The notes below the pieces were generated by a model that saw only the letters and a program-made list of their open reading frames with translations, was not told the origin of the DNA and ran no database searches. The position numbers and the translations under genes are program-made. A stretch of 38,542 nucleotides of DNA from Verrucomicrobiota bacterium (GTDB lineage: Bacteria; Verrucomicrobiota; Verrucomicrobiia; Chthoniobacterales; JAFAMB01), in assembly GCA_019235445.1 (NCBI GenBank), contig JAFAKL010000056.1, forward strand, positions 1 through 38,542, written 5' to 3'. Shown here one piece after another: positions 1 through 13,883 of this stretch. Position 1 is the stretch's first letter. Every line of letters begins with the position of its first letter.

Positions 1-2076
1 GATGGAGCCGATTCGATCGGCCTTTTCGCGGCCCTCTGTCGCGTTTACTTGAATATCGGCCTCTTCCACGATGAGTGGAACCGCGATACGAACACAATCA
101 TCGGTTTCACGCCGCAGAAGCCATTCACGATCGATGTGTGTCGCAGGAATTCACTTTACTGGCGGGTGAACGAGAACTTCCGCATCGGTTACATGGCGGC
201 TTTCTTTCTCTGGGATAAGCAAAGCCCCACCGAACTGCGCACCAAGGTGGAGGAACCGCGGTTTCAGTGTTCCACGCAAGCGATGCTGCTTAAGGACGCC
301 CTGATTGCGACTGCGGACGGCACGTCTCAAGAGCCGTTTGTTCCCGCCCCCACGAAAGACCATCCCGAGGGCACGCGCGTCATCACTCATTGGAACGATT
401 CCGCCGCGCTTTGGGATGAACCGGCCGCTCTCAAAGGTGGGAAGGTATTCGCGGAAAACTGCATGGTTTGCCACTCGAGCAAACAACCGATCGGCTACGA
501 GATTGCTTTCGCCCATGAGCCGCCGAATGGCGCAAAGTCTTGGCGGCAGGTGGCCGCAAATGACGGCAAACTCACCATGCCCTACGCGGGGGCGGACTGG
601 GAGGACTTCAAGAAAAGCCCCGCTTACAGCGACTACCTGGCCAGAGCGATTCCGCTCAGCGGAGAAGGCGATTGGGGGAAGATGCAGGAGTTTCTAAAGG
701 ACAATTACCTTTCTACGGACTTGCGCATCCCCGTTTCTCTTACGGAAACCAACTCTGCCCGCGCAGTTGGCACCAATGCGTTAAAAGGCCACGTCTGGAG
801 CGAATTTGCGTCGGAGACCTATCAAACTCTGCCACCGGTCGGAAAGCTGACTTACACAGATCCGATAACCAGGGAAAATGCCACTTATGAGCCCCCGGGA
901 AACGGTCCCGGCTACTATCGCGTTCCCTCGTTGGTGAGTGTCTGGATGAGCGCCCCGCTTTTGCACAACAATTCCCTCGGGCTTTTCATTGCGGATGATC
1001 TGAACCTTCGGGTGTCGGTGAAGGGTCGTCTGGATATGTTTGACGACGCTATCAACAAGCTGCTCTGGAAGGCCAAGCGCGGCCTGACCCCAAGCGGGCT
1101 GGGTGGTATGCGGGGCTCAACGGATACCACTTGGCGTGGCGCGGATCCTGGCTGGATTTACCGCACCGACGTGGAATCCGAATTGCGCATTCCCGCGGGA
1201 CATCTGCGCCACCTGGTCACCGGTGTTCTTCCTGGCGTGCTCCCCGGTTTGCCGGGGATCGTGGCGCTCGTGCTCCTTGATGTTCCCTGGCTCGCACCAT
1301 TGTTGCTCGCGCTCTTGAGCGGGGCGCTGATTCTCTTGTGGCCCAGGGGATTTTTCTATCTCGTGATCCTCTGCGGCATCCTGCTCGTGCTGGTGCTTTG
1401 GGTGACCGGCCTTCATTACCTGCTGCCAGCGGTTCTCTGGCTCCTCCCGCTGGCGCTCCTGGCAGGTGGGTTTTCCTGGATCTTGATGATGCCGCAAGAG
1501 GAAAAAGCAAAGGGCGGGAAAGAGAATGCGCCATCGCCGGCAAACACCAATGTGGCTGCAAGGTGGCGGCATACCGGATTGAGAATTGCACGGTGGAGCG
1601 GCGTCCTGGTGTACGCAGTGTTGTTGATCGGATTCCTGGTCGTGCTCTGGACGGCACGCGAATTCGTTAATGGGCACCTCGGCGACCTCAGGCTGGGACC
1701 GTTCCCGAAAGGAATGCCGGTGAATGTGCTCATGAACTTCGATCCAGAGGCCCCGATATCTCGTCGCCTGGCTGCGTTGCGCGGGTTGTGCGACATGCTC
1801 GGAACGCTGCGCGCCGAAGACGAGAAGGAACGCGCATCGGACGAAGCGCGCCGCGTAGCGCTCGAGAATGCTCCCTCAACTCCCGAGGACAAGCTGCCCA
1901 GGCTTTATCGATTGAGCGACGCGGACCGGTTGAAGGTGTTCGAGCAAAAGGCTGGACCTGCCCTGATGGCGGCCAGCAAGTGCCCGGACTTCGTGCTGGA
2001 CCGCGGACACTACTTCGGCGAGGCGCTTACCGATCAGGAAAAGAAGGACCTGATCGCATTTCTGAAGACGCTCTAA
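1..2076 (+). CDS. c-type cytochrome, di-haem cytochrome c peroxidase/MauG-like, with an internal multi-TM insertion; 5' end lies outside the window
   Basis: Frame 1 is open from nt 1; the listed ORF start at 49 is an internal TTG. The translated 5' end DGADSIGLFAALCRVYLNIGLF aligns with DGADSVGVPGAALRVYVNIGMF of the downstream paralogue. One CxxCH motif lies in the window (AENCMVCHSSKQP). YYRVPSLVSVWMSAPLLHNNSLG resembles the CCP/MauG distal region. The C-terminus KCPDFVLDRGHYFGEALTDQEKKDLIAFLKTL matches the paralogue. A ~150-aa hydrophobic block (nt ~1215-1670) is absent from the paralogue. Confidence 0.72.
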   Translation, partial: DGADSIGLFAALCRVYLNIGLFHDEWNRDTNTIIGFTPQKPFTIDVCRRNSLYWRVNENFRIGYMAAFFLWDKQSPTELRTKVEEPRFQCSTQAMLLKDALIATADGTSQEPFVPAPTKDHPEGTRVITHWNDSAALWDEPAALKGGKVFAENCMVCHSSKQPIGYEIAFAHEPPNGAKSWRQVAANDGKLTMPYAGADWEDFKKSPAYSDYLARAIPLSGEGDWGKMQEFLKDNYLSTDLRIPVSLTETNSARAVGTNALKGHVWSEFASETYQTLPPVGKLTYTDPITRENATYEPPGNGPGYYRVPSLVSVWMSAPLLHNNSLGLFIADDLNLRVSVKGRLDMFDDAINKLLWKAKRGLTPSGLGGMRGSTDTTWRGADPGWIYRTDVESELRIPAGHLRHLVTGVLPGVLPGLPGIVALVLLDVPWLAPLLLALLSGALILLWPRGFFYLVILCGILLVLVLWVTGLHYLLPAVLWLLPLALLAGGFSWILMMPQEEKAKGGKENAPSPANTNVAARWRHTGLRIARWSGVLVYAVLLIGFLVVLWTAREFVNGHLGDLRLGPFPKGMPVNVLMNFDPEAPISRRLAALRGLCDMLGTLRAEDEKERASDEARRVALENAPSTPEDKLPRLYRLSDADRLKVFEQKAGPALMAASKCPDFVLDRGHYFGEALTDQEKKDLIAFLKTL

Positions 2077-2096
2077 TCGTCTATCGAGGCTTGCGC

Positions 2097-12381: not shown

Positions 12382-13883
12382 GCGAATTCGATGCCGCGGA
12401 CGCGCAGGGTTTGCTGCGCTTTGGATACAAAAAAATGACCAAAGCCTCGTACGCGCTGCTGCGCGTAAAACACGTTGCGGCGGCGCAAGCCTGGTTGCAC
12501 TCCGCGCCGGTCACCACTGCGGTGGAGATGAATCCGCCACCGACGGCGGCCTTGCAGGTCGCATTTACCGCTCCTGGTCTACTGGCTCTTGGTGTGCGGG
12601 AGTCGGTGATCGCGGAATTCTCGCACGAGTTTCGAGGCGGCATGGCGCAAGAGAGTCGTTCGCGGCAATTGGGAGATGTGGACGACAACGCGCCCGAAAA
12701 CTGGAGTTGGGGTGGACCGGCGTACGGACTACATCTCGTGGTGATGTTTTTTGGTGAACCCGAACCGTACGAAGCCTTCGTCCAAACCTCGAAGGGTCCT
12801 GGATGGAATGACGCGTTCGATACCCTGGCCTGTCTTTACACCAGCGATTTTGGTGGAGTGGAACCGTTTGGGTTCACCGACGGGGTCAGTCAGCCGGAGA
12901 TTGACTGGGAGCAGCAGCGCAAAACGCCGTGCACTCAGCTTGACTATACTAACAGTGCCTCTCTCGGAGAGTTTCTGCTGGGGTATCGCAATGAATATGG
13001 CAAATACACGGACCGGCCGTTGCTCGACATCAGCCCCGCCAGTGCGGGCCTGCCCCCGGCGGAGGATGCGCCTGGGAAGAAAGACCTTGGACGCAACGGG
13101 ACCTATCTGGTGATGCGTCAATTGCAGCAGGACGTGCGCATGTTTTGGCAGTTCGTCGGCCAGCAGGTCGGCGGCGACATTGCGAAGGCGGAGAAATTAG
13201 CCGCGGCAATGGTCGGCCGAACGAGAGCAGGCGATCCGCTGGAGCCGATTCAGGAACAGCCGATTGCCGGCATCAGAGTGAAGCCAGGGGAAAGGGAACA
13301 GAACCGGTTTACCTTCGATCAGGACCCGACGGGCAGCCGGTGCCCTTTCGGTGCCCACGTGCGCCGGGCAAATCCACGCAACACCGATTTTCCTGACCGG
13401 CCAGGCAACGTATGGAGGAAGCTGATCACAATGCTGGGTTTCGGTCCAAAGGGTTTCCGCGACGACCTGACATCCTCCGTTCGATTCCATCGCATCGTGC
13501 GACGCGGCCGGGAATACGGAACTCAGTTGACACCGGAGGAGGCGCTCGCGCCGGCTCGTGGCTCTGACCCGGAACGCGGACTGCATTTCATGTGTCTGAA
13601 TGCCAACATTGCGCGCCAATTCGAGTTTCTGCAAAATGCTTGGATAAACAGCACAAAATTTTCTGGCTTAGTGGATGAAAGCGATCCACTGCTCGGCAAT
13701 CGCGCGCCGATACCCGGCTGCCCCGTCACGAATGACTTCACGATCCAGAAAAGCGGCGCCGTCCGGCGCCGGTTTTCTGGAATGCCCCAGTTCATCAAGG
13801 TGCGCGGCGGCGCGTACTTTTTCATGCCGGGGATCAAGGCGCTGCGCTACTTCGGGCAGGTAGAGGAGAGTCGAGTCAGCTGA
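12378..13883 (+). CDS. DyP-type (dye-decolorising) haem peroxidase
   Basis: - N-terminal DAQGLLRFGY.
- GxxDG motif with the distal Asp (EPFGFTDGVSQPEI).
- GTYLVMRQLQQDV.
- Proximal His region CPFGAHVRRANPRN.
- Distal Arg region HRIVRRGREYG.
- C-terminal GLHFMCLNANIARQFEFLQNAW.

The start is taken at ATG 12378 (ATGA overlap); the in-frame ATG 12363 is the alternative. Confidence 0.9.
   Translation: MSEFDAADAQGLLRFGYKKMTKASYALLRVKHVAAAQAWLHSAPVTTAVEMNPPPTAALQVAFTAPGLLALGVRESVIAEFSHEFRGGMAQESRSRQLGDVDDNAPENWSWGGPAYGLHLVVMFFGEPEPYEAFVQTSKGPGWNDAFDTLACLYTSDFGGVEPFGFTDGVSQPEIDWEQQRKTPCTQLDYTNSASLGEFLLGYRNEYGKYTDRPLLDISPASAGLPPAEDAPGKKDLGRNGTYLVMRQLQQDVRMFWQFVGQQVGGDIAKAEKLAAAMVGRTRAGDPLEPIQEQPIAGIRVKPGEREQNRFTFDQDPTGSRCPFGAHVRRANPRNTDFPDRPGNVWRKLITMLGFGPKGFRDDLTSSVRFHRIVRRGREYGTQLTPEEALAPARGSDPERGLHFMCLNANIARQFEFLQNAWINSTKFSGLVDESDPLLGNRAPIPGCPVTNDFTIQKSGAVRRRFSGMPQFIKVRGGAYFFMPGIKALRYFGQVEESRVS

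Follow-up and report, generated by a model that had tools for sequence, protein, structure and literature searches.

A conserved membrane-associated module of three haem-protein families in a Verrucomicrobiota contig and its possible role in lipid oxidation

Which function could hold together eight genes that follow each other on one strand at the start of a Verrucomicrobiota contig, and that encode haem proteins of several families next to a flavoprotein and a lipase? The contig (JAFAKL010000056.1 of assembly GCA_019235445.1; its positions 1-38,542 are called the window here) carries, in this order, genes for a partial c-type cytochrome (cytA), a GMC flavoprotein, a patatin-like phospholipase, a second cytochrome (cytB), a small protein, a catalase-related haemoprotein (CATL), a protein of 432 amino acids (aa) named U432, and a DyP peroxidase (Table 1). 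A first-pass annotation, made from the letters alone, had taken these genes for one operon-like unit, serving either lipid-peroxide/oxylipin metabolism or an oxidase-peroxidase degradation pathway. Our data demonstrate that a real, conserved module of several components exists, which is linked by synteny and by gene fusions, straddles the membrane and comprises three haem-protein families. The array of the window is composite, consisting of a core found across phyla and of accessories of the lineage. The role of the module would most likely be the metabolism of lipid or fatty-acid hydroperoxides (oxylipins).

To define the conserved part, loci with a CATL relative were collected from one genome per GTDB species (388 loci), and the best 80 were retained for all locus counts given here. 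Partner genes were sought by tblastn with the window proteins within 9 kb of CATL, with many misses at contig ends. The 80 loci belong to Verrucomicrobia (49, mostly metagenome-assembled genomes (MAGs) of the Chthoniobacterales/Udaeobacter type), Proteobacteria (13, including cultured Variovorax), Cyanobacteria (7, including Stenomitos, Microseira and Leptolyngbya), Acidobacteria (7), Gemmatimonadota (2) and others. U432 was detected near CATL in 75 of the 80 loci, DyP in 71, the small protein in 67 and a RoxA-like cytochrome in 61, while GMC (20/80) and patatin (17/80) genes were much less frequent. U432 and DyP were always on the same strand as CATL, as were most of the other partners. The order small-CATL-U432-DyP is found in Verrucomicrobia and Acidobacteria, the order small-U432-DyP-CATL in Variovorax, other Burkholderiales loci and cyanobacteria, and the linkage is kept in both. 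The deep conserved unit is small-CATL-U432-DyP, with or without the cytochrome; its genes co-occur in about 70-75 of the 80 loci and in at least five phyla.

The complete eight-gene order was limited to L002/L005 and L007. L002, a 3.0-Mb contig of a Verrucomicrobiae MAG and the closest relative with a long contig, has the identical eight genes with identical overlaps of 17 and 4 nt. The gene-neighbourhood comparison that the first-pass annotation had proposed thus revealed an arrangement conserved in 80 species-level genomes, in which conservation extends to the core only; the genes are linked as had been supposed, but they are not conserved as a whole. In another Verrucomicrobiae MAG (MFD02979, L003/L008, ~3422-8275) a DDE transposase gene (PF13340/PF01609) lies between the small gene and CATL, and the U432 and DyP regions were called as five fragments (84, 267, 67, 332 and 76 aa). 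The module looks disrupted there, or the long-read assembly contains frameshift errors.

Gene fusions gave a second line of evidence for the linkage. When 1.84 billion cluster representatives were searched exhaustively with HMMER, 3903 clusters proved to be related to CATL, and fusions were read among the best 150 of these. DyP is fused to CATL in P0243, P0248, P0267, P0322, P0336 and P0368, and CATL to U432 in P0245 and P0344. In P0328, P0335 and P0358 CATL is followed by one transmembrane (TM) helix and a RoxA-like di-haem cytochrome (PF21419 at 49-63 bits), and the cytochrome parts of these fusions have four collinear motifs in common with cytB. P0346 joins an animal haem peroxidase to CATL. 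Since the cytochrome fusions have no signal peptide at their CATL end, and since c-type haem attachment needs the periplasm, CATL should be located on the cytoplasmic side and the cytochrome on the periplasmic side of one membrane. CATL, DyP, GMC and the small protein are free of hydrophobic segments, while U432, patatin and cytA are membrane-embedded. The insertion of two members, the first cytochrome and the patatin, had been noticed before and was confirmed, and U432 is a third case. At the locus of Variovorax sp. BIN51 (L053, ~8520-11224) DyP and CATL were seen in one stop-to-stop open reading frame (ORF) of 902 aa, an apparent fusion like P0243 and P0248.

The cytochrome can be exchanged. 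Six of the seven cyanobacterial loci lack it and have a haem peroxidase of 584-612 aa beside the core, which matches PF03098 (E ~1e-117). This peroxidase is present in nine of the 80 loci, the six cyanobacterial ones and three others. PF03098 is the family of the cyclooxygenase (COX) and fatty-acid dioxygenases. In the peroxidase-bearing loci L020, L026, L029, L051, L068 and L079 a cyanobacteria-specific protein of 311 aa is encoded directly upstream of the small gene; in L068 (5643-6578) its gene is placed between the peroxidase and the small gene, and no Pfam or PDB match was obtained. The idea that it may be a second mini-catalase was rejected, as BLASTP, phmmer against the PDB and hhalign were all negative.

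CATL itself has no Pfam or NCBIfam match. Its best PDB match is the coral catalase-related allene oxide synthase (cAOS) 1u5u (phmmer, E = 0.0027). A Foldseek search with an AlphaFold 2 (AF2) model gave 146 PDB matches at E <= 0.001, all 50 listed ones having the catalase fold and cAOS ranking first (1e-8); the model is of low confidence, so this result was used as a signal of family consistency and never for geometry. The AF2 models of CATL and U432 were built from alignments restricted to sequences of >=70% identity. Relatives of CATL at 35% identity exceed the cut-off of 25 bits for PF00199 (P0346 with 32.3 bits, P0281 with 29.7 bits). The motif HRPLGNQSRARRRMY386 on the proximal side is kept, with R382...Y386 in HRPLGNQSRARRRMY. 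Of 150 CATL representatives, 96 cover the Tyr site and 92 of these have Tyr; Arg382 was found in 95 of 101. Taken together, these features uphold the assignment of CATL to the catalase fold that had been made from the sequence.

Two clades can be distinguished in the CATL family, a His type with the motif RDAHPKxHG (71 representatives) and an Asn type with ERGGNTKT[H/Q/Y]G (45 representatives). The former takes in the fusions to the cytochrome and to the haem peroxidase, the latter the window protein and several DyP fusions, and both retain the catalase-style Arg/Tyr motif HRPLG..NR.RR..Y on the proximal side. Identity of CATL to the window copy amounts to 78-81% in each of the phyla sampled, whereas U432 and DyP drop to 37-51%. 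Codon identity at identical residues of CATL is only 44-46%. These values indicate an old divergence of CATL under very strong purifying selection, and recent horizontal transfer as the cause of the high identity was rejected in view of the low codon identity and of the divergent partner genes. A level of about 80% identity from cyanobacteria to Verrucomicrobia represents a constraint that is more usual for housekeeping proteins. On the minus strand, an ORF of 334 aa (9245-10249) runs opposite the small gene and the beginning of CATL; many loci have such antisense ORFs opposite CATL, and the simplest reading is that the extreme conservation of the sense strand produces them as a side effect.

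The DyP of the window was assigned to class V, which bears out the earlier family call. Its best phmmer matches in the PDB are 8re3 (DrDyP, 1e-40), an ancestral D-type enzyme (7.5e-28), fungal DyPs (1e-25) and Amycolatopsis DyP2 (1.5e-23). TIGR01413 scored below its cut-off (74 bits, cut-off 100.5) and Pfam Dyp_perox_C just above (21.1 bits, cut-off 20). The motifs GFTDG, GAHVRR and RIVRRG are present, and none of the 62 orthologues compared deviates at the Asp, the proximal His or the distal Arg. The structures 8re2 and 8re3 represent DR_A0145 of Deinococcus radiodurans, a class C/V DyP with a six-coordinate low-spin haem that is inactive at physiological pH (PMC10820274). The gene adjoins that of DR_A0146, a catalase-like protein that shows no catalase activity (PMC6300522, a review).

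As in the module described here, the Deinococcus DyP has two recognisable neighbours. It is followed by a His-type CATL relative of 361 aa (29% identity to CATL, E = 3e-32) and preceded by a 244-aa protein that is homologous to one repeat of U432 (hhalign probability 97.8%, E = 7.5e-13). We found this triad in a contig with 99% identity to DrDyP, in a contig with 81% identity and in a Microbacterium genome. The association of a U-domain protein, a DyP and a catalase-related protein therefore extends well beyond the 80 loci. Sizes are uniform among the triads of L084/L085, L086 and L087 (U-domain protein 234-244 aa, DyP 455-457 aa, His-type catalase-like protein 361-362 aa). A divergent gene for a TetR-family regulator is located directly upstream in L084/L085, and a gene for a major facilitator superfamily (MFS) transporter directly downstream in L086.

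U432 is an internally duplicated, membrane-anchored protein. It consists of two homologous α/β domains (aa 4-159 and 268-417; hhalign probability 98%, E = 1.4e-13), each of which carries a (I/L)HFAR(W/L) strand, and a hydrophobic segment of 37 aa (aa 204-240) lies between the repeats. No Pfam match was found in 24 diverse members and no profile match in the PDB. In Foldseek searches the confident N-terminal domain of the predicted structure weakly resembled α+β barrels of the ABM/IsdI type at E about 0.1-0.4 (no U432 hit below 0.13), values that would support a generic ferredoxin-like fold only. A derivation of U432 from a divergent DyP was rejected, since hhalign of the whole protein, the N-terminal half and the C-terminal half against the DyP family gave probabilities below 2%. 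The small protein likewise had no Pfam match (21 members, E <= 1) and no profile match in the PDB. A motif impression of a GXWXG/DUF4334-like protein was dropped, because Pfam, the PDB profile search and hhalign against the other core proteins were all negative. U432 and the small protein are labelled hypothetical in RefSeq and UniProt; they represent two families with thousands of members that have no Pfam model.

The two cytochromes differ in their standing. cytA is the accessory member, a second RoxA-like cytochrome of the lineage. The window contains its C-terminal 691 aa with one CXXCH motif, the N-terminus lying beyond the window edge, and the L002 counterpart has ~1128 aa. Ahead of its C-terminal GHYFG...LKTL motif, about four TM helices are inserted (aa 405-498 and 529-557, counted on the partial product); NF040606 matches at 30 bits, and C-terminal matches to RoxC and RoxB were obtained. 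cytB corresponds to the core cytochrome and has two CASCH motifs and a signal peptide with a lipobox (LVGC). Among 63 cytB-type ORFs two CXXCH motifs spaced by 210-265 residues were found in 56, the remaining seven being truncated or broken; intact orthologues have signal- or lipobox-type N-termini and ~710-900 aa.

Several model matches bear on the family assignment of the cytochromes. NF040606 (di-haem cytochrome c peroxidase) was matched by 20 of 20 diverse cytochromes (best E = 7e-17, 48 bits in L002), all below the cut-off of 150 bits. PF21419 (RoxA-like) was matched by 8 of the 20, with 17.7 bits for the window copy against a cut-off of 26.7. The RoxC, RoxB and RoxA models were matched by 12, 10 and 7 of them, respectively, these equivalog matches covering the last 24 residues only (~15-20 bits, cut-offs ~900). 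By their shared motifs the cytochromes would be placed in the superfamily of cytochrome c peroxidase (CCP), MauG and RoxA, probably nearer to the RoxA branch and outside every named family. The previous CCP/MauG-like call was right for the superfamily, while the RoxA/FadCcp branch is probably nearer than the CCP/MauG peroxidases. The same holds for the statement that three peroxidase folds are combined: three haem-protein families are indeed present, but to speak of peroxidase chemistry was an overstatement, as the cytochromes more closely resemble RoxA/FadCcp dioxygenases. Apart from this refinement, the family calls hold for all eight products.

cytB had been described as a decayed paralogue. 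The gene is broken, but it is otherwise well conserved, and it is the core cytochrome and no spare copy. Compared to the intact 714-aa orthologue of L002, it shows a deletion of 1 nt in an A-run near 7434, a deletion of 11 nt near 7699 and an insertion of 1 nt near 9024. The first two indels add up to -12 nt, so that the frame is regained after ~90 out-of-frame codons. In the correct frames identity to the L002 orthologue is 72-84%, no further decay was seen, and nearly all of the 63 orthologous copies are intact. The lesion is thus either a recent inactivation or an assembly error. We favour a real lesion, since the long window genes that were checked read as single ORFs with full-length Pfam matches and since a deletion of 11 nt is atypical of a homopolymer error.

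The GMC protein exceeds the cut-offs of PF05199 (GMC_oxred_C, 78.8 bits) and PF00732 (GMC_oxred_N, 46.9 bits) and has the FAD-binding GSGPGG motif at aa 33. It matches 61 solved GMC enzymes at E < 1e-5, with choline oxidase (8e-21) and fatty-acid photodecarboxylase (1e-18) as the nearest structures. In the 20 loci that have a GMC gene it is paired with a cytochrome. The patatin matches PF01734 with 30.5 bits (cut-off 27.7) over aa 56-116 only. It has an SGGGIRA oxyanion motif, a nucleophile motif SISSG (Ser 92; Ser replaces the first Gly of GxSxG) and a DGG motif (Asp 707). As about seven TM segments (aa 157-449) separate the Ser and Asp motifs, the catalytic domain is split by a polytopic membrane insert. 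In all 17 loci that have one, the patatin gene is directly upstream of the core cytochrome gene. In the Microseira locus L068 genes for a short-chain dehydrogenase/reductase, a DJ-1 protein and a PGAP1-like lipase are found downstream of the core.

What reaction could such a module perform? With moderate confidence we consider the region a composite membrane-associated haem-enzyme module with a mechanism of lipid or fatty-acid oxidation, of which we infer the substrate, the order of the steps and the chemistry. The patatin would free unsaturated acyl chains from membrane lipid. The RoxA/FadCcp-like cytochrome would then oxygenate C=C bonds at the periplasmic face, as the 10S-dioxygenase PA2077 of Pseudomonas aeruginosa does, and a complex of CATL, U432 and DyP might take over the hydroperoxide at the cytoplasmic face. 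There, CATL may rearrange or cleave the hydroperoxide like catalase-related allene oxide synthases (AOS) or hydroperoxide lyases, with its chemistry altered by the exchange of the distal His for Asn. DyP could use the hydroperoxide as oxidant or oxidise the product, and the resulting alcohol or aldehyde would be oxidised by the GMC enzyme. A role in lipid hydroperoxide metabolism is suggested because the interchangeable partners of the core, RoxA-like and COX-like, are dioxygenase-type enzymes, because P. aeruginosa has RoxA-like di-haem enzymes that have been proven to be fatty-acid dioxygenases (PMC4496055), and because characterised catalase-related proteins convert fatty-acid hydroperoxides and lipases are recruited to the loci. 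The lipid-peroxide/oxylipin alternative of the first-pass annotation has in this way gained comparative backing from synteny, fusions, the COX-like swap and adjoining lipases, for a function that we still infer.

Several observations weigh against this view. Asn112 of CATL aligns with His67 of cAOS, so that the distal His of catalases and cAOS is absent, and in the window protein (ERGGN112TKTQG) Gln116 stands where most relatives carry His. As a consequence, the hydroperoxide chemistry of CATL is not assured: the proposed relation to cAOS-type catalases is retained, but AOS-type chemistry should not be assumed. The predicted structures are poor for CATL (pLDDT 43.9) and weak for U432 (pLDDT 58.7), where a ferredoxin-like α+β domain in the N-terminal half is the confident part. 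The cytochrome scores stay below the curated RoxA and CCP cut-offs throughout, and a PDB profile search with the cytochromes gave generic CXXCH matches and RoxA (4b2n) at E = 0.37 over the last 25 residues. The core cytochrome of this very genome is frameshifted, and the module is possibly partly inactive here. Moreover, the annotation of L084-L086 (Deinococcus and Microbacterium) shows neither a dioxygenase nor a lipase up to 6 kb from the triad; the basic function of the triad therefore need not involve lipids.

Could the cytochromes act on C=C bonds other than those of fatty acids? Cleavage or turnover of isoprenoids or other alkenes (carotenoids, quinone side chains, squalene/hopanoid precursors, polyprenols) would have the cytochrome cut the double bond as RoxA does in polyisoprene, with DyP and CATL processing the products and the GMC enzyme oxidising alcohols. 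The PF21419 and C-terminal motifs that the cytochromes share with RoxA/B/C would fit this, the membrane-embedded parts suit any lipophilic substrate, and some fungal DyPs cleave carotenoids. We nevertheless hold it to be unlikely, given that a member of a fatty-acid dioxygenase family occupies the position of the cytochrome in cyanobacteria, that patatin and PGAP1-type lipases suggest acyl lipids, and that those partners of catalase-related proteins which have been characterised use fatty-acid hydroperoxides. A general defence against peroxides, in which the CCP-like cytochrome, CATL and DyP jointly clear both faces of the membrane of H2O2 or organic peroxides, could account for the co-location of three haem families that are usually annotated as peroxide-removing and for the NF040606 matches of all 20 cytochromes. 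It seems rather improbable to us, as CATL has no distal His as needed for catalatic turnover, DR_A0146 lacks catalase activity (PMC6300522), DrDyP is inactive at physiological pH (PMC10820274), and it would be left unexplained why two unknown proteins, lipases and dioxygenase-type partners are tightly linked and fused.

The second alternative of the first-pass annotation, in which H2O2 from the GMC enzyme drives an attack of DyP on lignin-like or aromatic substrates, found poor support. GMC and DyP enzymes cooperate in fungi, and both genes belong to one same-strand array here. The GMC gene is optional, however, while DyP is always tied to CATL and U432; it follows the cytochrome gene directly and is away from DyP in the window, in L002, in L007 and in the Variovorax loci; and inspection of the GMC and DyP sequences revealed neither a signal peptide nor a Tat motif nor a hydrophobic segment, so we consider such a pathway very improbable. 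The least probable of the explanations that we weighed is a function in haem or iron handling, with DyP as an EfeB-like deferrochelatase, U432 domains of the IsdG/ABM kind and CATL as a haem carrier. It draws on the weak resemblance of the N-terminal model domain of U432 to ABM/IsdI barrels and on the filing of DR_A0145 under the EfeB COG (PMC6300522), but all Foldseek values exceed 0.1 with an only partly confident model, and lipases, GMC and dioxygenase partners would have no place in it. In the gene tables that were read, which is not a systematic check, transporter genes for iron or haem were not noted near the core, with the exception of FecCD/ABC genes towards the end of L084/L085. The data are clearly less compatible with defence against peroxides, the GMC-driven DyP attack and haem or iron handling than with lipid or fatty-acid hydroperoxide metabolism.

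A broader picture can be put forward tentatively. The U-domain protein, the class V DyP and the catalase-related haemoprotein may form an ancient, so far unrecognised three-protein haem machine, which would be the setting in which bacterial class C/V DyPs work physiologically. This machine would, in soil Verrucomicrobia, Burkholderiales, Acidobacteria and cyanobacteria, be wired across the inner membrane to periplasmic RoxA- or COX-like dioxygenases and to lipases, and would make or dispose of lipid hydroperoxides; the chemistry of the Asn-type CATL would be new. What our data place on firmer ground is the fixed partnership of class V DyPs with a catalase-related and a two-domain protein, seen in the synteny of 80 species and in several independent fusions, and its extension in many lineages to dioxygenase-type haem enzymes and lipases. 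The physiological role and the natural substrates of bacterial DyPs are described as still unclear (PMC10820274). The module bears on this question, and the lipid-hydroperoxide hypothesis can be tested in Variovorax, Stenomitos and Deinococcus. As the closest relatives of the window are mostly Chthoniobacterales/Udaeobacter-type MAGs, from lineages known mainly from soil metagenomes, the module may matter in the lipid or oxylipin chemistry of soils. In the searchable literature we found no paper on the cluster, on the association of DyP, catalase-related and U-domain proteins or on the fusions, in line with the earlier remark that the array was not recognised as a described operon.

The layout of the window is given in Table 1. 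The ORF listing and direct reading of the sequence agree with the earlier annotation in placing all eight genes on one strand and in the four junctions it had listed, which are gaps of 20 nt (cytA/GMC) and 7 nt (CATL/U432) and overlaps of 17 nt (GMC/patatin) and of ATGA at 12378-12381 (U432/DyP). A promoter/terminator scan was uninformative (8 promoter-like sites versus 5.7 expected) and does not decide whether a second transcript starts in the 167-nt gap before cytB. No Rfam match was found in the window.

Table 1. Position of the array genes and of further genes in the window (nt)
Feature	Position	Strand	Remarks
cytA (partial)	1..2076	+	reading frame runs off the 5' end of the window; TAA 2074-2076
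GMC flavoprotein, 752 aa	2097..4355	+	ATG 2097; TGA 4353-4355
Patatin-like phospholipase, 873 aa	4339..6960	+	ATG 4339
cytB, frameshifted core cytochrome	7128..9258	+	split across three reading frames
Small core protein	9263..9769	+	168 aa from GTG 9263; 159 aa from ATG 9290
CATL, catalase-related haemoprotein, 411 aa	9840..11075	+	
U432, 432-aa protein	11083..12381	+	
Class V (C/D-type) DyP peroxidase, 501 aa	12378..13883	+	
Pat-type acyl-CoA synthetase/GNAT acetyltransferase	17521-20256		
Succinate dehydrogenase/fumarate reductase, flavoprotein and Fe-S subunits	35196-37765		

Genes beyond position 13883 were rejected as members of the module, as they are unrelated and not conserved beside the cluster. 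The adjacent 3.6 kb (13884-17520) have a lower GC content (0.49-0.54), ORFs of at most 196 aa and no Pfam or Rfam match; the counterpart region of L002, with genes for a metallophosphoesterase, an alkaline ceramidase and a β-lactamase-like protein, has no equivalent there. The remaining part (17521-38515) has ordinary chromosomal content, and the module is therefore on no obvious mobile island here. Besides the genes listed in Table 1, this part includes genes for a PAS-SpoIIE phosphatase, an HpcH aldolase with a Zn-dependent alcohol dehydrogenase, a pyridine-nucleotide disulphide oxidoreductase, a β-carbonic anhydrase, a PMT_2 glycosyltransferase and an MFS transporter.

How does the module compare to known systems? 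DR_A0145 and DR_A0146 of Deinococcus have been treated separately in print, as a DyP inactive at neutral pH and as a failed catalase (PMC10820274, PMC6300522). Their locus resembles the core in that the DyP is flanked by a catalase-like protein and a homologue of the U432 repeat. It differs in its single-domain U protein and its catalase-like protein of the His type, and no cytochrome, GMC, patatin or small protein was called adjacent to it. The cytochromes recall RoxA, RoxB and RoxC in their di-haem c-type architecture, in the PF21419 motif YYRVPSL..W..AP.LHNN and in the C-terminal GH.(Y/F)G...L(K/E)(T/F)(L/F). The RoxA enzymes are secreted and soluble, whereas the window-type cytochromes are lipoproteins or membrane-inserted, and their genomic context is unrelated to rubber degradation.

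PA2077 and PA2078 of P. aeruginosa, RoxA-like di-haem enzymes of the FadCcp subfamily, act as fatty-acid 10S-dioxygenase and diol synthase (PMC4496055). By description they are, like the cytochromes studied here, periplasmic di-haem proteins (2 x CXXCH) related to RoxA and CCP, with two paralogous genes per array. The description of their operon includes no catalase-related protein, DyP, GMC or patatin, and the window cytochromes are larger (710-1128 aa), one of them with a four-helix membrane insert. The fusions of cAOS to lipoxygenase in corals and cyanobacteria (1u5u, 3dy5) give the best matches of CATL in sequence and fold, have the Tyr/Arg motif on the proximal side in common with it, and likewise couple a dioxygenase physically to a catalase-fold converter of hydroperoxides. 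They differ from CATL at the distal position (His67 versus Asn112), and identity over the Foldseek alignment is 18-19%. Lipoxygenase is not among the recurring genes of the 80 loci or in the Pfam tables that were read, although no search was aimed at it.

A further parallel is a tandem of Nostoc punctiforme. According to the passage on it in PMC9579011, which cites Brash et al. 2014 (J Biol Chem 289:13101), a COX-like linoleate 10S-dioxygenase works there with a catalase-related 10S-hydroperoxide lyase. Judged by description and family, both systems pair a haem dioxygenase gene with a catalase-related gene, and the PF03098 peroxidase of the cyanobacterial clusters and the peroxidase-CATL fusion P0346 add to this likeness. 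In the window the partner is a RoxA-like di-haem cytochrome c, DyP, U432 and the small protein are obligatory neighbours, and CATL carries Asn at the position of the distal His and is extended by ~70 aa at its N-terminus. At the level of the system, a gene for a haem dioxygenase-type enzyme is found next to CATL in most loci (a cytochrome in 61/80, a PF03098 peroxidase in 9/80), and CATL is fused to both. The logic of combining a dioxygenase with a catalase-fold converter is already known, and the distribution of the module is unusually broad.

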